From a virus (lineage: Duplodnaviria > Heunggongvirae > Uroviricota > Caudoviricetes): 10,013 bases of DNA. The stretch lies in IMG/VR virus record IMGVR_UViG_2778261352_000004, positions 1 through 10,013 of that record. One strand, 5' to 3'. Positions 1-10,013 of this stretch are shown here, piece after piece. Under the pieces are notes generated by a model. That model searched no databases. It was not told the DNA's origin and was given only the letters and a program-made list of their open reading frames with translations. Position 1 is the first letter of the stretch, and the number at the start of each line of letters is the position of its first letter. A program made the translations under genes and the position numbers.

Positions 1-2334
1 TCAGGTTGTCGCAGGGTCGTCACATTTTGGCAGCCAGTCGCCGTAGCTTTCCTCTTTCAGCGTCAGGTTGGTCTGTATCCCCTGTTTGGTATGGCGCTTC
101 TCGTAATTCAGCCCGTATTCCTTCAGCATCACCGGCAGCCCCAGCCCGAACATTTTCAGACTGAGTACATTCCGGTAGCCGTTTGCCTCCATGTAGGCCA
201 GATAGGCGTGATAGAGGTATTTACGGTAATTACGCGGGATGATACTGGCGTTCCCCATATACATGCCGCTGGTCTGCGGCAGGGTTTCCAGATAGCCGAT
301 AAAATCAAACATCGGGTCGGCATCCCGTTTGATGTTCAGTGCCTCGTCTGAGTTCTGCTGGGACTGAAGCAGTGACCGGGCGAGCATCGGGTCGCTGAAC
401 TTCTGCATCAGGTGACGCACGATGACCGCCAGCTCGCGGGTGATTTTGTCCTTAAGCTGCGGGTCGCGCTCCTGCGGGGCTATCTGTTCCGGGAAGTGAA
501 TAATCACCCGCCGGCGTGACACGCCGCCGCTGCGGTCGGTGAAGCGCATCGGGTTATTGTTCACGGCCAGAATCACCGCCGGGATGTGCGTGGAGTACGC
601 ATCCCGGTATTTCGGGTCAACGGACACCGCATCGCCGCCGGTGATGGCCTTGAGTCCGGCTCCGTCGCCGCTCCATTTTTCCTGGTCCGGCAGGCGTATC
701 AGTGAGAAGCCAGTTAACGCGGCACGTTCACGCGGGGATTCCAGCGTCTCGATGGTGGCCGACGTGGCGTTATCCTCCCCGGCCAGCAGGGTGGCTATTT
801 CGGCCATGATACTTTTGCCGCTGCCGCCGGGACCGGTCACCTCCAGAAAGAGCTGCCAGTCGTAGCGGTTTGCCAGCACCATAAACAGTGCGGCCAGAAT
901 CACGTCGCGTTTTTCCGCACGGCCACCGGCGGCACGGTCAAGCCAGCGCCAGAACGCGGGGGCGTGGGTTTCCAGCGTTTCCCCTTCCACCGGCGGGGTG
1001 AAATCCACATCGCACAGGGTGCGCATCCAGTGTGACGGACTGTGCGGGTGGAACGTGCCGTTCTGCGTGTCGAGCACGCCGTTACGAAAGCCAATCAGGC
1101 GGCGGGAGGGGGCTTCCTGCTGCGGAATAATCAGCTTCAGGGTGTCCACCACGGAGGCCACTTTCCCGGAGGAGAACGGCGCGCGCAGACGCTGAAACAG
1201 CCCGGCCACATCCCGGGCAAAGTCCTGTGGTGGCAGTACCTTCCAGACACCATTTTCATAGCGGGACAGAAGCTGGCCGTTGGCATCGACCGCGAGCGCC
1301 TCGCCGTAATGCTCATAGATACGCATGGCCTTTTCGCTGGTACTCATGGCGGAAAACTCCGCTTCGCTCATGGTGTCGAACGGGCTTTCAGCCGGTGGCC
1401 GGATGGCATCATAAATGGCCTTACGGGTGGCTTCCCCGCCGTACTGCGTGAAGGCATCATTCCAGTCACCGAAGACCGGCGGCAGGGCAACAACACCTTC
1501 ACACGCATCTGCGGCTGCGGCGGCTTTTTTCTGGCCGTCACCGCTGAGGTCACGGTCAGCAGCAAGGACAATCTGACAGGCCGGATGCTTCTGCCGGGCA
1601 AGGCTGGCCAGAGAAAGGAGGTTCACGGAAGAAAGCGCCACCATCACCGTTTCACCGGTCAGGTGATGCACGGTAAGTGCGGTCGCGTATCCCTCCGCTA
1701 TCCACAGACGTTTTCCGGCCTGATTCTGTCCTTCAAGGGTGTGACAGGTGCCCCTGACCTGTCCGCCTTTCAGGGTGCGCTTACGGCCGTCAGCACTGAT
1801 TAACTGAAGGTTAACCAGTTCGCCGCTGTCGTCATACAGTGGCACCACAAGGTCACCGGCGCACCAGCTCACGCCACCGGCTCTGTGTGTGCCGGTCAGC
1901 ATCCGGCATTCCCGGCCGGGAAAGCCCTTGCGGGTCAGGTAGGCGTTACCGGTTCCGGGACGGGTTTTTGCCATCAGGGTTTGTGCCAGTGCGGCGGCGT
2001 TCTTCCGGGCAGCGTCTGTTTCAGCGCCGGCGGCGGCCGTCACTGCCGGGTCAGCCGGGGGCAGGCTGCCGGTCACGGCAGCCACCTTTGCGGCCGCGTC
2101 GGACGGGGAAACACCAAACACCTTTTCAACCAGTTTCAGGCCGTCACCGGCACCACACTGATTGCAGTACCAGGTGCCGCGCCCCTCCCTGTCATCAAAA
2201 CGGAAGCGGTCACTCCCGCCACAGACCGGACAGGGCTGATGACGGTTCTTAAGCACCTGAATCCCCAGCGCCGGGAGAATACGCGGCCAGTGGCCGAGCG
2301 CATGGCTGACGGTGGCGGTTACGTTCATTTTCAT
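1..2334 (-). CDS. alpha: P4 alpha-type primase-helicase (origin-binding replication protein), 777 aa, complete
   Basis: N-terminal zinc-binding motif CPVCGG...WYCNQCG (nt 2155-2232); TOPRIM-like acidic residues in LWIAEGYATA...LAADRDLSGDG; Walker A GPGGSGKS (nt 811-834). SD AAGGAG 9 nt upstream of ATG at 2334; stop TGA at 1-3. Length equals recalled P4 alpha. Confidence 0.95.
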   Translation of the reverse strand: MKMNVTATVSHALGHWPRILPALGIQVLKNRHQPCPVCGGSDRFRFDDREGRGTWYCNQCGAGDGLKLVEKVFGVSPSDAAAKVAAVTGSLPPADPAVTAAAGAETDAARKNAAALAQTLMAKTRPGTGNAYLTRKGFPGRECRMLTGTHRAGGVSWCAGDLVVPLYDDSGELVNLQLISADGRKRTLKGGQVRGTCHTLEGQNQAGKRLWIAEGYATALTVHHLTGETVMVALSSVNLLSLASLARQKHPACQIVLAADRDLSGDGQKKAAAAADACEGVVALPPVFGDWNDAFTQYGGEATRKAIYDAIRPPAESPFDTMSEAEFSAMSTSEKAMRIYEHYGEALAVDANGQLLSRYENGVWKVLPPQDFARDVAGLFQRLRAPFSSGKVASVVDTLKLIIPQQEAPSRRLIGFRNGVLDTQNGTFHPHSPSHWMRTLCDVDFTPPVEGETLETHAPAFWRWLDRAAGGRAEKRDVILAALFMVLANRYDWQLFLEVTGPGGSGKSIMAEIATLLAGEDNATSATIETLESPRERAALTGFSLIRLPDQEKWSGDGAGLKAITGGDAVSVDPKYRDAYSTHIPAVILAVNNNPMRFTDRSGGVSRRRVIIHFPEQIAPQERDPQLKDKITRELAVIVRHLMQKFSDPMLARSLLQSQQNSDEALNIKRDADPMFDFIGYLETLPQTSGMYMGNASIIPRNYRKYLYHAYLAYMEANGYRNVLSLKMFGLGLPVMLKEYGLNYEKRHTKQGIQTNLTLKEESYGDWLPKCDDPATT

Positions 2335-3730: not shown

Positions 3731-3802
3731 AAGGCAACCTCCGATAACAGCGTAAATGACGCTATCGCCGGAGTTCTCACGCTCGATGGCGATAGCCCAG
3801 AC

Positions 3803-3831
3803 GGGGGTGAGAATACCGGCGTTATCGGAAA
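3803..3831 (-). promoter_or_regulatory. antisense-type element in the immunity leader, complementary to two sense repeats (3995-4025 and 3741-3780)
   Basis: Minus-sense RNA here reads UUUCCGAUAACGCCGGUAUUCUCACCCCC. Its CCGAUAAC and UUCUCAC blocks are exact complements of GUUAUCGG and GUGAGAA, which occur in both flanking repeats; 13 of 15 contiguous nt pair with the copy abutting the kil-position SD. Confidence 0.3.
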
Positions 3832-3969
3832 CCGGCCAGCCCGGAGGCTGCCCCGCCTGAGCTACCATTGACTCAGTGGCATAACATGCGATTGCGAACA
3901 GGATCATACCTGCACGGCAAACCACACGCCACACCATAATCTGGTGCTCTGTGGCGTTGATTGCGACAC

Positions 3970-3991
3970 AAAAAAAGACGCATGGCGCGTC
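3970..3991 (-). terminator. Rho-independent terminator in the immunity leader (hairpin GACGC-GCCAU-GCGUC followed by U7)
   Basis: On the minus strand: 5-bp GC-rich stem (plus 3977-3981 / 3987-3991) immediately followed by seven T (plus-strand A-run 3970-3976). Lies about 130 nt downstream of the vis stop. Confidence 0.55.
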
Positions 3992-4047
3992 ATATGTCGC
4001 CGATAACATACTCGGGTTCTCACGCCCGGCTGCCGATTTTGCGGCAG
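3970..4047 (-). ncRNA. candidate small structured RNA (about 78 nt, promoter-to-terminator unit), possibly a P4 CI-like immunity RNA or leader
   Basis: Candidate sigma70 promoter just upstream (4055-4084), then a 7-bp hairpin GCUGCCG-N6-CGGCAGC (4029-4048), further short helices, and the intrinsic terminator at 3970-3991. Contains the sense repeat GUGAGAAC...GUUAUCGG. Confidence 0.3.
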
Positions 4048-4054
4048 CGGAAAA

Positions 4055-4084
4055 ACTATATCCGCAAATGCCGGAAAAAGGCAA
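4055..4084 (-). promoter_or_regulatory. candidate sigma70 promoter (P_LE-like): -35 TTGCCT, 18-bp spacer, -10 TATAGT, reading leftward
   Basis: Read directly on the minus strand: TTGCCT at plus 4084-4079, TATAGT at plus 4060-4055. Motif match only; no expression data. Confidence 0.3.
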
Positions 4085-4386: not shown

Positions 4387-4488
4387 CGGGCTACCTCGTT
4401 AATGTCCATACAGCACCGGATAAGTCCGTCCGGCTTCGGGTAGCGCTTTATTTTGTGAATATTTTTGGCAGACGCAACAGGGGGGATT

Positions 4489-4506
4489 TGTTCCGGCAGC
4501 CTTACA
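4489..4506. promoter_or_regulatory. TGT-N12-ACA dyad upstream of vis; candidate Delta/Ogr activator site of the leftward late promoter (P_LL-like)
   Basis: Read directly: TGT 4489-4491, 12-nt spacer, ACA 4504-4506; a TGT-N11-ACA near-copy lies at 4512-4528. The consensus is recalled from P2/P4 late promoters. Confidence 0.4.
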
Positions 4507-4664
4507 ATGGCTGTGCATTTTTTGTACATCAGCGCCAGATAGCTTTAAAACGCTCTGGAAGGAGCTGGAAAAAATTATAGTGAAATACAAATTGTTTTTT
4601 CTTATTTATTTCAGTGAATTAATAAAAATAAAAAGTAATAAACAGCACAAAAAGCCCATCAACG

Positions 4665-4769
4665 GGTGAACAGTGGTGAACAGACGGTGAACAGTCATTA
4701 CTGCGATTGTTCACCCTTTAACTTATTGTATTACTTATCTTTTTTCTTATGGTGAACAGAGGTGAACAG
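4665..4769. repeat. origin-like iteron cluster: five direct GGTGAACAG copies plus one inverted TGTTCACC, inside an AT-rich tract (candidate ori, alpha-binding type I iterons)
   Basis: Copies at 4665-4673, 4675-4683, 4686-4694, 4751-4759 and 4761-4769, with inverted TGTTCACC at 4708-4715. Flanked by very AT-rich sequence from about 4575 to 4800. The octamer TGTTCACC is recalled as the P4 alpha-binding iteron. Confidence 0.7.
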
Positions 4770-4847
4770 TAAAATATAAAAAAACAAACAGTAAGCCGGT
4801 TTTTCCTGCGACCTTTTCCTGGCTTGCCGGTCTGAGGATGAGTCTCC

Positions 4848-4865
4848 TGTGTCAGGGCTGGCACA
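4848..4865. promoter_or_regulatory. TGT-N12-ACA dyad about 75-90 nt upstream of sid; candidate Delta/Ogr-activated P_sid promoter element
   Basis: Read directly: TGT 4848-4850, 12-nt spacer, ACA 4863-4865, placed where a -55-centred activator site for a start near 4910 would sit. Confidence 0.45.
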
Positions 4866-4937
4866 TCTGCAATGCGTCGTGTTGTTGTCCGGTGTACGTC
4901 ACAATTTTCTTAACCTGAAGTGACGAGGAGCCGGAAA

Positions 4938-5672
4938 ATGTCTGACAACACCATCCCTGAATATCTGCAACCCGCACTGGCACAACTGGAAAAGGCCAGA
5001 GTCGCTCATCTTGAGAACGCCCGCCTGATGGATGAGACCGTCACGGCCATTGAACGGGCAGAGCAGGAAAAAAATGCGCTGACGCAGGCCGACGGAAACG
5101 ATGATGACGACTGGCGCACGGCCTTTCGTGCAGCCGGTGGTGTCCTGAGCGACGAGCTGAAACAGCGCCACATTGAGCGCGTGGCACGCCGGGAGCTGGT
5201 ACAGGAATATGACAATCTGGCCGTGGTGCTGAATTTTGAACGTGAACGCCTGAAAGGGGCGTGTGACAGCACGGCCACCGCCTACCGGAAGGCACATCAT
5301 CATCTTCTGAGTCTGTATGCAGAGCATGAGCTGGAACACGCCCTGAATGAAACCTGTGAGGCGCTTGTCCGGGCAATGCATCTGAGCATCCTGGTACAGG
5401 AAAATCCGCTCGCCAACACCACCGGCCATCAGGGCTATGTCGCACCGGAAAAGGCTGTCATGCAGCAGGTGAAATCATCGCTGGAACAGAAAATTAAACA
5501 GATGCAAATCAGCCTCACCGGTGAGCCGGTTCTCCGGCTGACCGGACTGTCAGCGGCAACACTTCCGCACATGGATTATGAGGTGGCAGGCACACCGGCA
5601 CAGCGCAAGGTGTGGCAGGACAAAATAGACCAGCAGGGAGCAGTGCTTAAGGCCAGAGGACTGCTGTCATGA
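4938..5672 (+). CDS. sid: Sid, capsid size-determination (external scaffold) protein, 244 aa
   Basis: ATG at 4938 with SD GAGGAG 8 nt upstream; the GTG at 4920 in the ORF track has no SD. N-terminus MSDNTIPEYLQPALAQLEK; stop TGA overlaps the delta start in an ATGA junction (5669-5672). Length matches recalled P4 Sid. Confidence 0.92.
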   Translation: MSDNTIPEYLQPALAQLEKARVAHLENARLMDETVTAIERAEQEKNALTQADGNDDDDWRTAFRAAGGVLSDELKQRHIERVARRELVQEYDNLAVVLNFERERLKGACDSTATAYRKAHHHLLSLYAEHELEHALNETCEALVRAMHLSILVQENPLANTTGHQGYVAPEKAVMQQVKSSLEQKIKQMQISLTGEPVLRLTGLSAATLPHMDYEVAGTPAQRKVWQDKIDQQGAVLKARGLLS

Positions 5673-6169
5673 TTTACTGCCCGTCGTGTGGACATGTTGC
5701 TCACACCCGTCGCGCACATTTCATGGACGATGGCACCAAGATAATGATTGCACAGTGCCGGAATATTTATTGCTCTGCGACATTTGAAGCGAGTGAAAGC
5801 TTTTTCTCTGACTGTAAAGATTCAGGAATGGAATACATTTCAGGCAAACAGAGATACCGCGATTCACTGACGTCAGCCTCCGGCAGTATGAAACGCCCGA
5901 AAAGAATGCTTGTTACCGGATATTGTTGTCGGAGATGTAAAGGCCTTGCACTGTCAAGAACATCGCGACGTCTGTCTCAGGAAGTCACCGAGCGTTTTTA
6001 TGTGTGCACGGATCCGGGCTGTGGTCTGGTGTTTAAAACGCTTCAGACCATCACCCGCTTCATTGTCCGCCCGGTCACGCCGGACGAACTGGCAGAACGC
6101 CTGCATGAAAAACAGGAACTGCCGCCAGTACGGTTAAAAACACAATCATATTCGCTGCGTCTGGAATGA
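5669..6169 (+). CDS. delta: Delta, Ogr-family zinc-finger late-gene transcriptional activator (tandem Ogr-like domains), 166 aa
   Basis: Two Cys-cluster halves (CPSCG...CRNIYC and CCRRC...CTDPGC) typical of duplicated Ogr-like zinc fingers; translationally coupled to sid; length matches recalled P4 Delta. Confidence 0.92.
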   Translation: MIYCPSCGHVAHTRRAHFMDDGTKIMIAQCRNIYCSATFEASESFFSDCKDSGMEYISGKQRYRDSLTSASGSMKRPKRMLVTGYCCRRCKGLALSRTSRRLSQEVTERFYVCTDPGCGLVFKTLQTITRFIVRPVTPDELAERLHEKQELPPVRLKTQSYSLRLE

Positions 6170-6242: not shown

Positions 6243-6815
6243 ATGGAAAGCACAGCCTTACAGCAGGCCTTTGACACCTGTCAGAATAACAAAGCAGCAT
6301 GGCTGCAACGCAAAAATGAGCTGGCAGCGGCCGAACAGGAATATCTGCGGCTTCTGTCAGGAGAAGGCAGAAACGTCAGTCGCCTGGACGAATTACGCAA
6401 TATTATCGAAGTCAGAAAATGGCAGGTGAATCAGGCCGCCGGTCGTTATATTCGTTCGCATGAAGCCGTTCAGCACATCAGCATCCGCGACCGGCTGAAT
6501 GATTTTATGCAGCAGCACGGCACAGCACTGGCGGCGGCACTGGCACCGGAGCTGATGGGCTACAGTGAGCTGACGGCCATTGCCCGAAACTGTGCCATAC
6601 AGCGTGCCACAGATGCCCTGCGTGAAGCCCTTCTGTCCTGGCTTGCGAAGGGTGAAAAAATTAATTATTCCGTACAGGATAGCGACATTTTAACGGCCAT
6701 CGGATTCAGGCCTGACGCGGCTTCGGTGGATGACAGCCGTGAAAAATTCACTCCTGCGCAGAACATGATTTTTTCGCGTAAAAGTGCGCAACTGGCATCA
6801 CGTCAGTCTGTGTAA
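6243..6815 (+). CDS. psu: Psu, polarity suppression protein (Rho antagonist / capsid decoration), 190 aa
   Basis: Position after delta and about 165 bp before cos; length matches recalled P4 Psu; N-terminus MESTALQQAFDTCQNNKAAWLQRKNELAAAEQEY. Confidence 0.9.
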   Translation: MESTALQQAFDTCQNNKAAWLQRKNELAAAEQEYLRLLSGEGRNVSRLDELRNIIEVRKWQVNQAAGRYIRSHEAVQHISIRDRLNDFMQQHGTALAAALAPELMGYSELTAIARNCAIQRATDALREALLSWLAKGEKINYSVQDSDILTAIGFRPDAASVDDSREKFTPAQNMIFSRKSAQLASRQSV

Positions 6816-6845
6816 AATTCCCCGAAAATCCGCCCGTTTTTACTG

Positions 6846-6890
6846 AAAAAAGCCATGCATCGATAAGGTGCATGGCTTTGCATGCGTTTT
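6846..6890 (+). terminator. candidate intrinsic terminator of the sid-delta-psu operon (9-bp stem AGCCATGCA/TGCATGGCT, 9-nt loop, T-rich tail)
   Basis: Stem 6851-6859 / 6869-6877, followed by TTGCATGCGTTTT; an A-run precedes it, so it may act in both directions. Confidence 0.45.
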
Positions 6891-6979
6891 CCTGCCTCAT
6901 TTTCTGCAGACCGCGCCATTCCCGGCGCAGCCTGAGCGTGACTGTGCAACTGCATTAAAACCGCCCTGCAAAGCGGGCG

Positions 6980-6998
6980 GGCGAGGCGGGGAAAGCAC
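6980..6998. other. cos site: 19-nt P2/P4-type cohesive-end sequence GGCGAGGCGGGGAAAGCAC, uncleaved
   Basis: Exact 19-mer read at 6980-6998, preceded by inverted repeat CCGCCC-N8-GGGCGG (6961-6980). Matches the cohesive end as I recall it for P2/186/P4; spacing from the psu stop fits P4. Confidence 0.75.
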
Positions 6999-7102
6999 TG
7001 CGCGTTAGACTTAACTAAAGTGATTGATTCAGATGCTAAAAACGCGTAGAAAAAGGAATGCAACTACCCCTATCAGTGCTCCTCTTGAAGGATAAATAAA
7101 AA

Positions 7103-8788
7103 ATGAGCATTATTCACGTAAATCAAATTGGCAGTAAAGTTAAGGCATTATTTGCTGATAAAATTGATAACAGTGATCTCAATCATAAAGATAAAGAAAT
7201 ACAAACTAAAATATTGACTCGTTGTCTTTCTGCTTACGCTGTTTTTTGTATTGGAGATACCTCGATAGATGAGGCTGCGTCAGCAGTTGTTGATGGTGCC
7301 GATGATAATGGTATCGATGCAATTCATTATTCTCCTTCAAGTAAGAGGATGATTATTGTTCAATCTAAATGGAAAAAGGATGGAACAGGAGAACCTGATA
7401 ATGGTGATTTGAGGAAGTTTAAAGATGGTGTATTAGACCTCATTAATCTTGAGCTTGATAAATTTAATAACAAAGTAAATCTAAAAAAACAGATGATTGA
7501 AACAGCTTTGGGTGAGTTTGATACAAAATTTGATCTTGTTTTAATTCACACAGGTGCGAATACTCTAAGCAAACATAACCAACAAGTAATGGATTCAATT
7601 CTTAATGAATTAAACGATGCCGGTGATGGAACCAGTGAGGATGTTGTTAGTTTCCACCATCTGAATCAAGCGATAATTCATAGTGGTCTTGCCTCTGGTA
7701 TGGATGGGGAACCAATCGATTTGGAAATCGGTCTTTCACAATGGGGAAAAATTGAAGAGCCACATCAAGGTTTTTTCGGGATTGTAGCTGGTGAGGAGGT
7801 TGCAAATTGGTGGTTAAAAAAAGGGAAAAGACTATTTGCCAAAAATATTAGGCAAATGTTAGGTGCTACTGAAGTTAATGATGAGGTTAAGAGAACAATT
7901 GAGGAACAACCTGAGAATTTTTGGTATTACAATAATGGTATAACTATTGTTGCTGAATCTATAAAAAAATCGATGGTTGGTGGAAATAGTAGAGATATTG
8001 GTTCGTTTAAAGCGAGTAATATAAGCATTGTTAATGGTGCTCAGACTGTAAGCGTAATTGGTAAATATTCGCAAGAAGGAGGGGCAAATCTTGCTAAATT
8101 GCGTTTACCTATCCGATTGATTTCATTAGAAGGTGCGCCAGAAGACTTTGGTGCAAATGTGACAAAAACTAATAACCGTCAAAATAGAATCGAAAGCAGA
8201 GACTTTGTTTCCTTAGATGATGAGCAAATCCGGTTAAAAAGAGAACTATCCTTGGAGGGGATTGAGTATAATATAGTAAGGAGTGAGAATGTTAAGACAT
8301 CGGCTAGCATAATCGATTTATCTGAAGCGACCATTGCATTGGCTTGTGCGTCTACGCAGGTGGGTTTAGCAGTTCAAGCGAAAAGAGAAATAGGTCGATT
8401 CTATGACAATCTTAATAAAGCGCCATATAAAACAATTTTCAACCCGCAAACCAATGGTATTTATTTACGAAATACGGTATTTGCATTACGAAAAATAGAT
8501 GAAATAATTGGCGAAATGATTGCGAACATACCTAAAAAATCTGGTAAAGAGTATGGTGTTCTTGTTCATGGGAATAGGATGTTGGCATTTTTGGTTTTTA
8601 GAAAGTTGATGATACATAAAATCGCAAATAACTTTGATTTTGATATGTCTTCAATTGATTGGTATGAAACCACATCAGATATGCTTGAGAAATTGATGTC
8701 GGAAATTGAAGAGAATTATAAGGATAAGTTTCTTGCTACTTTATTTAAGAACGCAAGTATTTGTAAGGCTATATCCGAGAAAATATAA
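7103..8788 (+). CDS. hotspot cargo: 561-aa protein with N-terminal Mrr-type PD-(D/E)xK nuclease-like motif and AIPR-like (abortive infection) features; candidate single-gene anti-phage defence protein
   Basis: Single long ORF in a strongly AT-rich block flanked by GC-rich satellite DNA. N-terminal GADDNGIDAIHY...MIIVQSKW (D-G-I-D ... Q-x-K; Q87/K89 at 7361-7369). Also WYYNNGIT (7922-7945) and IVNGAQT (from 8027), which I recall as AIPR-type motifs. SD-like AAGGA upstream; stop TAA 8786-8788. Family assignment is from memory of motif patterns, not a search. Confidence 0.55.
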   Translation: MSIIHVNQIGSKVKALFADKIDNSDLNHKDKEIQTKILTRCLSAYAVFCIGDTSIDEAASAVVDGADDNGIDAIHYSPSSKRMIIVQSKWKKDGTGEPDNGDLRKFKDGVLDLINLELDKFNNKVNLKKQMIETALGEFDTKFDLVLIHTGANTLSKHNQQVMDSILNELNDAGDGTSEDVVSFHHLNQAIIHSGLASGMDGEPIDLEIGLSQWGKIEEPHQGFFGIVAGEEVANWWLKKGKRLFAKNIRQMLGATEVNDEVKRTIEEQPENFWYYNNGITIVAESIKKSMVGGNSRDIGSFKASNISIVNGAQTVSVIGKYSQEGGANLAKLRLPIRLISLEGAPEDFGANVTKTNNRQNRIESRDFVSLDDEQIRLKRELSLEGIEYNIVRSENVKTSASIIDLSEATIALACASTQVGLAVQAKREIGRFYDNLNKAPYKTIFNPQTNGIYLRNTVFALRKIDEIIGEMIANIPKKSGKEYGVLVHGNRMLAFLVFRKLMIHKIANNFDFDMSSIDWYETTSDMLEKLMSEIEENYKDKFLATLFKNASICKAISEKI

Positions 8789-8810
8789 TCTGGCACTCCG
8801 TTATATTAAG

Positions 8811-8832
8811 AAATGCCGCTTATGCGGCATTT
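8811..8832. terminator. bidirectional hairpin between convergent cargo and integrase genes (AAATGCCGC-TTAT-GCGGCATTT)
   Basis: 9-bp perfect stem with 4-nt loop, 8811-8832, between the cargo stop (8788) and the integrase stop (8841); A/T-rich flanks on both sides. Confidence 0.5.
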
Positions 8833-8840
8833 GTCTATTA

Positions 8841-10013
8841 TCAGAAAAATGAATAGATATAATTACTATACCATTGCATCATAGAGCGTCTTTTCTCTAA
8901 ATACTGAGCATGGTTATATGTTCCACGAATACTATTTTTATCAACATGTGCCAATTGCATTTCAATCCATGAGCTATCAAACCCTTGTTCGTGCAATATT
9001 GTCGACATGGTATGTCGAAAACCGTGGCCTGTAGCACGGCCTTTGTAGCCAAGTAACTCAATTACCTGTGAAACACTTTCTTTTGAGATCGGCTTGCTAC
9101 GATTGTTCCTTCCAATAAAAATGTATGGGTAATGTCCTGTAATAGGTTTGAGTTGTTTAAATAGGGTAATTACCTGTGTAGATAAGGGAACAATGTGTGG
9201 TCTACGCATTTTCATTCTTTCTGCTGGTATTTCCCATATACCCTTTTCCAGGTCTACTTCATTCCATGTGGCAAAGCGCATTTCCTGAGTTCTTATGCCA
9301 GTTAACATGACTATCTTTGTCGCATTTTTAGTGATGATGCTTCCGGTGTATGCTTCAAGATCTTGAATAAAATAAGGCAACTCTTCGGCAGATAAAAATG
9401 GGTGGTGTTTTTGTTTAGGAACGGTCAGAGCGATAGCTAAATCAGGTGCGGGGTTGTATTCAGCTCGGCCAGTTATGATTGCATAACGAAAGACCTCACC
9501 GCATCTTTGGCGCACTTTTCTGGTCTTCTCTAGTGCTCCTCGTTTCTCTATTCGTCGCAACACTTCAAGCAGTTCTAATGGTTTGATTTCACTGATAGGA
9601 CGTTTACCAATGAACGGGAAGACATCTTGCTCGAATGTCTTAATGATTTCTTCTCGATAGGCTACAGTCCAGCGGTCAGCTTTGTTGGTATGCCATTCTC
9701 GACATATTGCTTCGAAAGAATTTTCTATTGATAGCTTTTGAGCGAGTCTTAAAGCTTTGCGTTCCTCTACCGGGTCAATGCCATTAGCAACCTGCTTACG
9801 GGCGATATCACGCTTCTCACGTGCTTCTGCGAGGCTTACTAAATCGTAGCTGCCAAATGACATTAACCGCGCTTTCCCTGCAAACCGGAAACGGAAACGC
9901 CAGCCTTTCGAGCCATCGGGATTGATAAGCAATGACAGACCTTGTCCATCGTTCAATGTGTATGGTTTGTCTTGTGGTTTTGCGCGTTTGATCTGTATAT
10001 CGGTTAGAGCCAT
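8841..10013 (-). CDS. int: tyrosine site-specific integrase (P4-type, N-terminal arm-binding domain), 390 aa, complete
   Basis: ATG at the last three window bases (10013-10011); N-terminus MALTDIQIKRAKPQDKPYTLNDGQGLSL typical of P4-family integrases. Catalytic-type motifs LTGIRTQE, HGFRHT, LAHVD and RGTYNHAQY; stop TGA 8843-8841. Any SD or promoter lies outside the window. Confidence 0.9.
   Translation of the reverse strand: MALTDIQIKRAKPQDKPYTLNDGQGLSLLINPDGSKGWRFRFRFAGKARLMSFGSYDLVSLAEAREKRDIARKQVANGIDPVEERKALRLAQKLSIENSFEAICREWHTNKADRWTVAYREEIIKTFEQDVFPFIGKRPISEIKPLELLEVLRRIEKRGALEKTRKVRQRCGEVFRYAIITGRAEYNPAPDLAIALTVPKQKHHPFLSAEELPYFIQDLEAYTGSIITKNATKIVMLTGIRTQEMRFATWNEVDLEKGIWEIPAERMKMRRPHIVPLSTQVITLFKQLKPITGHYPYIFIGRNNRSKPISKESVSQVIELLGYKGRATGHGFRHTMSTILHEQGFDSSWIEMQLAHVDKNSIRGTYNHAQYLEKRRSMMQWYSNYIYSFF

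Follow-up and report, generated by a model that had tools for sequence, protein, structure and literature searches.

The only gene between the cohesive-end site and the integrase of a P4-like satellite from an E. coli chromosome is a single-gene candidate anti-phage nuclease of the AbiU/AIPR family. It is likely to be a stand-alone anti-phage defence gene carried as psu-cos-int cargo, in which a predicted N-terminal nuclease would be gated by the central AIPR domain together with the C-terminal part of the protein. The gene is located at 7103-8788 on the plus strand of the window, i.e., the whole analyzed stretch of 10,013 nucleotides, it starts with ATG and it encodes 561 amino acids. It shows 100% nucleotide identity to a gene in NZ_CP013662 that is annotated as 'AIPR family protein' and encodes WP_032211572, and the 100% identity to NZ_CP013662 covers positions 7000-8840 of the window. 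The gene, its family name, its location in the hotspot and a cloning experiment are already in the literature, so that the locus adds nothing new in these respects; the remaining value lies in the mechanism of AbiU/AIPR, a large family of single-gene defence systems that extends across phyla. The domain picture described here, an invariant D/D/D...QxK head followed by a probably ParB/DUF262-like AIPR core, offers point mutants and hypotheses for the family.

With the Pfam family AIPR (PF10592; cutoff 25) the protein scores 114.1 bits (E=1.4e-32), with an alignment that comprises residues 245-395 and the first half of the model only (1-154 of 308). The PADLOC model for AbiU (PDLC02357) is matched nearly over its full length (E=1.2e-33; residues 51-559 against positions 37-532 of 537, 92% of the model), and phrog_1841 is matched with E=2.9e-116. 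The preliminary description had read an AIPR-type abortive-infection protein from sequence motifs, and this assignment is supported by the profiles; the motifs it quoted are all present, namely GID72...Q87-S-K89, WYYNNGIT (274-281), IVNGAQT (309-315) and NNRQNR (357-362). The family encompasses 5354 clusters at 50% identity with E<=1e-3 and 608 clusters with E<=1e-30, and the architecture of ~560 aa is collinear down to ~32% identity. As expected for AbiU as a single-gene system, the cargo stands alone between cos and int, and homologs are solo genes in five unrelated contexts. An N-terminal HEPN domain, as in the HEPN-containing AIPR proteins described by Makarova (2012), was not found. MzaE (NCBIfam NF041935) was rejected as an assignment, as the score of 55.7 bits is far below the equivalog cutoff (1050) and no Mza genes are in the vicinity; the AIPR core is shared with MzaE of the MZA system, and this match is restricted to the central domain (residues 226-378). 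Searches of PDB sequences with phmmer and with a profile of 71 sequences gave no meaningful match, and a Foldseek search against the PDB likewise returned nothing significant.

An AlphaFold2 model was built from 71 homologs (mean pLDDT 79.6) and residue conservation was analyzed in 69 representatives of 31-46% identity. The N-terminal domain (7190-7702, plus strand; residues ~30-200) is a predicted PD-(D/E)xK-fold nuclease domain and has the alpha-beta-beta-beta-alpha-beta core of this fold. Its top structural neighbour is FokI and not an entry of the Mrr family, followed by AspBHI (8.1), AF1548 (7.9), N.BspD6I (7.7) and MspJI (7.5), with EcoT38I, LlaBIII, Avs4, HamA, NucS and Upx as further neighbours. 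D72 is positioned at the start of the strand formed by residues 73-77 and Q87-x-K89 (Q87-S-K89) resides in the strand formed by residues 82-89 of the model. D64, D68 and D72 are conserved in 69/69 representatives, while Q87 and K89 are conserved in 68/69, which argues for constraint on the protein. A Gln thereby occupies the position of the second acid of the (D/E)xK motif, with D64 and D68 as additional invariant acids. The same D/Q/K residues are invariant in AIPR proteins of 20-33% identity from Klebsiella, Rhodococcus, Clostridium, Enterococcus plasmids and a P2-like Salmonella phage. The Mrr-like N-terminus proposed in the preliminary description thus holds at the level of fold and motif and fails at the level of the family: Pfam Mrr_cat (PF04471) gave no match at E<=1, neither with the full protein nor with residues 1-231 alone, and membership in Mrr_cat was rejected on this basis. 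In contrast to Mrr/Mrr_cat-type nucleases, including the heads of LlaBIII and Avs4, the cargo protein is structurally nearest to FokI. The isolated pieces 1-231 and 396-561 did not match any Pfam family.

The central AIPR domain (7766-8302, plus strand; residues ~222-400) contains the invariant motifs N248-x-R250, NNG(I)T (277-281), NGAQT (311-315) and N358-x-QN361. Its best fold matches are BrxU of the GmrSD family, SspE and DndI, and it is probably a ParB/Srx/DUF262-like domain. The Arg motif of such domains (DGQQR/DGQHR/GxxR) is absent; in its place stands the invariant block N311-G-A-Q-T315, with the Thr in 68/69 representatives and without an Arg. Unlike GmrSD/BrxU and SspE, which combine DUF262 with DUF1524, the cargo protein has its predicted nuclease at the N-terminus (inverted order) and of the PD-(D/E)xK instead of the DUF1524/HNH type, NGAQT replaces DGQQR and no relationship is detected at the sequence level. 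The C-terminal domain (8303-8785, plus strand; residues ~401-561) is all-helical in the AlphaFold2 model (pLDDT 82-96) with conserved HGNR (489-492) and LFKN (547-550) motifs, and it gave no informative fold match.

The psu-int hotspot of P4 was defined by Rousset et al. (2022; PMC9122126), and Table S1A of this study contains the entry NZ_CP013662 / AIPR / WP_032211572. The preliminary description had left it undecided whether this variant is already characterised, and this exact protein is the one in the published table. Table S2B ('additional tested systems') contains the plasmid pFR77 with 'AIPR' from E. coli E1167, cloned together with the native upstream region of the gene. The pFR77 protein is identical to the ORF of the window over the 399 residues shown in the table, so both are the same protein, with the window copy originating from a strain other than the cloned E1167. 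The insert of pFR77 corresponds to approximately positions 6694-8844 of the window, with ten SNPs in its first 399 nt (the portion tabulated), all of which fall into the psu-cos flank. For the phage challenge, each system was carried on a pSC101 vector in MG1655 under its native promoter and exposed to lambda, T4, P1, 186cIts, CLB_P2, LF82_P8, AL505_P2, and T7, and AIPR is not among the validated systems (Table S2A). The cloning and phage-panel experiment suggested in the preliminary description had therefore already been done with pFR77, and the gene stayed outside the validated list. The authors stated that a small panel and native-promoter expression underestimate activity, and PARIS from strain O42 needed induction (Rousset et al., 2022). 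The P4-borne member from E. coli is part of a published set of plasmids, with no phenotype assigned to it.

For other members of the family more has been reported. According to a 2026 review, AbiUi of Lactococcus lactis alone is sufficient for resistance, with a 10- to 100-fold drop in efficiency of plating (EOP), delayed phage transcription and an AlphaFold model that is FokI-like. A Vibrio AbiU was validated in a 2024 preprint, which also describes 'Surt', a phage inhibitor of it; a 2026 preprint placed AbiU in P4 and P2 hotspots, and analyses based on DefenseFinder assign AbiU-1 to the PD-(D/E)XK superfamily. The literature yielded no study on the mechanism of an enterobacterial AbiU and none with a positive functional result, and neither a biochemically established mechanism nor a demonstrated nuclease activity was found for any AbiU. 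The cargo protein resembles AbiU from L. lactis pND001 (AbiUi/AbiU1) in its near full-length HMM match, its size (~560-590 aa), the sufficiency of one gene, the FokI-like PD-(D/E)xK N-terminus in both AlphaFold models, the Pfam AIPR domain and its location on a mobile element. It differs in being only distantly related, with ~20-22% identity to AIPR proteins of Firmicutes. Moreover, the second gene of the lactococcal locus, the HEPN-like AbiUii, dampens resistance, while the cargo gene has no partner gene. Host and carrier differ as well, being E. coli and a P4-like satellite.

The location of the gene is that of a P4-type hotspot, with psu and cos on the left and int on the right. The left conserved flank is formed by psu (polarity suppression/capsid decoration; 6243-6815, plus strand; Pfam Psu, E=1.2e-88; 'phage polarity suppression protein' in RefSeq), and 3' of psu a terminator-like hairpin is found (6849-6879, plus strand), in which a stem of 13 bp precedes UUUGCAUGCGUUUU (fold -22 kcal/mol, z=-3.2 vs shuffles). 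The consensus terminator scan did not call this hairpin; if it acts as a terminator, it suggests that transcription of the late sid-delta-psu operon does not simply continue into the cargo gene. Downstream, an exact match to the 19-mer GGCGAGGCGGGGAAAGCAC, the known cohesive-end sequence of P2/P4 cos, is located at 6980-6998 on the plus strand. The P4 reference and further hotspot clones from Table S2 of Rousset et al. (2022) contain the same 19-mer. The variable cargo begins with an AT-rich leader of 98 nt (7005-7102, plus strand; GC 34.7%). Between the convergent cargo gene and int, the terminator scan identified a further terminator-like hairpin (8811-8832; fold -14.9 kcal/mol, z=-3.5), and the tyrosine integrase (8841-10013, minus strand; Pfam Arm-DNA-bind_3, Phage_int_M and Phage_integrase) forms the right flank. 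The ORF list contains no second credible gene in the cos-int interval, with short antisense ORFs only inside the cargo gene, and together with the match to the cos 19-mer this agrees with the preliminary description of a sole 561-aa ORF in the interval. The description as a variable hotspot is likewise confirmed: among 5426 complete E. coli genomes the psu-cos flank is present in 1052 and the AIPR cargo in 20, and the entry of Table S1A is in line with this.

The cargo ORF has a GC content of 35.0% (GC3 26.5%), compared to 52.7% for psu and 61.1% for alpha. Similarity to five P4-type sequences, the P4 reference and hotspot clones, stops at ~7004, six bases after cos, and this break in homology coincides with the fall in GC content. 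The difference in composition that had been taken as a sign of separate acquisition is sharp on the left side only (35% vs 53-61% in the backbone), as the integrase on the right has a low GC content as well (42.1%, GC3 37.1%). The int allele (>=99% identity) occurs in 21/5426 E. coli genomes, essentially the cargo-bearing set, and the next-closest int alleles are ~91% identical. Hence, the cargo is foreign-looking at its left border, and acquisition of the gene alone is not separable from a block of int and cargo or from one clonal lineage; either int moves jointly with the cargo, or a single clonal lineage of the satellite accounts for the 20 copies. A repeat search around the cargo revealed no flanking direct or inverted repeats that would point to mobilisation as a transposon or cassette. 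In 20/20 genomes the ORF is intact, with at least 99.8% identity. In E. coli NCTC11023 (NZ_LS483297.1, ~52892-53403) positions 7000-7267 of the window are joined to 9768-10013; this locus, which looks like a deletion derivative, keeps the leader and ~166 nt from the start of the AIPR gene, abutting a 5' int fragment annotated as 'Arm DNA-binding domain-containing protein'.

All examined homologs stand alone, in surroundings that are either mobile or related to defence. The homolog of Aggregatibacter phage S1249 (54% identity; locus L002, 3317-5698) is located directly downstream of a cI-type repressor gene and co-oriented with it, the place at which rexAB is found in lambda, and by this analogy expression in the lysogen is suggested. 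A Vibrio cholerae homolog with 64% identity (GCA_024217395.1; locus L003, 6001-7689) resides among DUF645, Phd/ParE and acetyltransferase cassettes, an array typical of the superintegron, suggesting that this defence gene is also spread in the form of an integron cassette. Further homologs are encoded in an integrative element of Geomonas and in a type I R-M/RhuM island of Morganella. The AIPR protein of the P2-like Salmonella phage RE-2010 (22% identity), which is encoded next to the portal gene (locus L014, 481-2145) and carries the note 'prevents superinfection', keeps the D...QxK and NGxQT motifs. AIPR genes are often linked to R-M operons.

For the expression of the cargo gene, an AAGGA Shine-Dalgarno-like ribosome-binding site is present at 7088-7092 and the leader is predicted to be unstructured by RNA folding. 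A promoter scan identified no sigma-70 consensus promoter upstream of the ORF on the plus strand, which makes native expression of the gene uncertain; the missing consensus could by itself explain the negative result obtained with pFR77 in 2022. Under the favored reading as a stand-alone defence gene, a weak promoter of the gene itself would drive production of the protein in the lysogen, where the protein would be held inactive. Upon infection, the AIPR and C-terminal parts would read a cue, for example a protein or nucleic acid of the phage or modified DNA, with the ParB/Srx/DUF262-type module acting as putative nucleotide- or nucleic-acid-sensing regulator and the helical C-terminal domain as scaffold or region of trigger recognition. 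The cue would license the N-terminal D...D...QxK PD-(D/E)xK nuclease, the presumed effector, to cleave nucleic acid of the phage and possibly of the host. Expression of phage genes would thereby be delayed or aborted and the satellite-carrying population be protected. In favor of defence count the HMM matches, the invariant residues D64/D68/D72/Q87/K89, the P4 hotspot, the mobile contexts of the homologs and the precedents of AbiUi and Vibrio AbiU; against it count that pFR77 was not validated against eight coliphages, that no promoter consensus was found, the Gln in the (D/E)xK motif, the absence of a PDB match and the fact that the lactococcal prototype reduces EOP only 10- to 100-fold.

The principal alternatives to this gated defence gene concern the way in which the protein would act. 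It could perform direct, type IV-like restriction: as in GmrSD/BrxU/SspE, phage DNA with a modification or other mark would be recognised by the AIPR domain, it would be cut by the PD-(D/E)xK domain, and the cell would survive. We regard this as unlikely, even with modification-dependent enzymes (AspBHI, MspJI) among the neighbours of the nuclease domain, BrxU, SspE and DndI as best matches of the central domain and frequent R-M linkage of AIPR genes, exemplified by the Morganella ortholog that adjoins type I R-M. It is quite improbable that the N-terminal PD-(D/E)xK domain is catalytically dead and serves nucleic-acid binding or sensing, with the effector residing in the AIPR domain, the C-terminal domain or a host partner. 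This would be in accordance with the replacement of the second catalytic acid by Gln (Q87, 68/69), with the lack of a sequence-level match to any nuclease Pfam family and with the absence of AbiU nuclease activity from the literature; however, D64, D68, D72 and K89 are invariant in the family, as expected of a metal-binding active site, and no other catalytic domain was detected in the protein. Moreover, Mrr-type PD-(D/E)xK enzymes can carry a Q-x-K variant of the motif and be active, which also speaks against a dead nuclease.

The least probable reading is that the gene is not a working defence in E. coli, being either silent or serving the satellite otherwise, e.g., in competition with the helper or with other P2/P4 elements, or in element maintenance. 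No protection was reported for pFR77, a clear promoter was not found upstream of the ORF, the deletion derivative in NCTC11023 retains only the leader and the start of the gene, and with 20/5426 genomes the gene is rare. These points are opposed by the intactness and near identity of the ORF in all carriers, by the collinear ~560-aa architecture with its invariant motifs over the 608 clusters at E<=1e-30 and by the authors' own statement that their assay underestimates activity (Rousset et al., 2022). The presence of homologs in many non-satellite contexts makes a P4-specific role unlikely. Returning to the stand-alone defence gene, a more specific and tentative idea, for which we see a limited chance, is that AbiU/AIPR proteins are 'inverted GmrSD-like' enzymes, in which the ParB/Srx-type domain, with NGAQT for DGQQR, would respond to a nucleotide or to phage nucleic acid that carries a mark and thereby control the QxK nuclease, and that the P4 copy would protect against a class of phages outside of the 2022 panel. 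If true, a mechanism would for the first time be available for this widespread family, which comprises >5000 clusters at 50% identity and has been known since 2001.

The remainder of the window represents the satellite backbone. The alpha primase-helicase (1-2334, minus strand) was identified as ORF and by Pfam, an AlpA-type regulator was likewise identified (Pfam), and the delta gene is located at 5669-6169 (Pfam). Rfam matches above gathering score were obtained on the minus strand for the C4 antisense RNA (3785-3872; 76 bits), isrK (3971-4048; 71 bits) and the c4-a1b1 target (4009-4061; 51 bits); these form the P4-type RNA immunity region, by which the satellite backbone is confirmed. A second stretch of low GC content (~38-42%) at ~4400-4900, between the AlpA-type regulator and the sid-like gene, is presumably a divergent promoter/regulatory region of the satellite. 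The sid-like ORF (4920-5672, plus strand) is intact with 250 aa and a GTG start, and it has no Pfam match. In NZ_CP013662 the corresponding sid-like CDS (window positions 4939-5672) is annotated by RefSeq as a frameshifted pseudogene, 'glycoprotein 3', while the reading frame is intact in the window. According to the RefSeq context, the satellite in NZ_CP013662 adjoins tRNA-Sec. Just beyond the alpha gene, outside of the window to its left, NZ_CP013662 contains a rhuM pseudogene fragment (locus L001, 1266-1427), and RhuM is also encoded in the neighbourhood of the Morganella AIPR ortholog.
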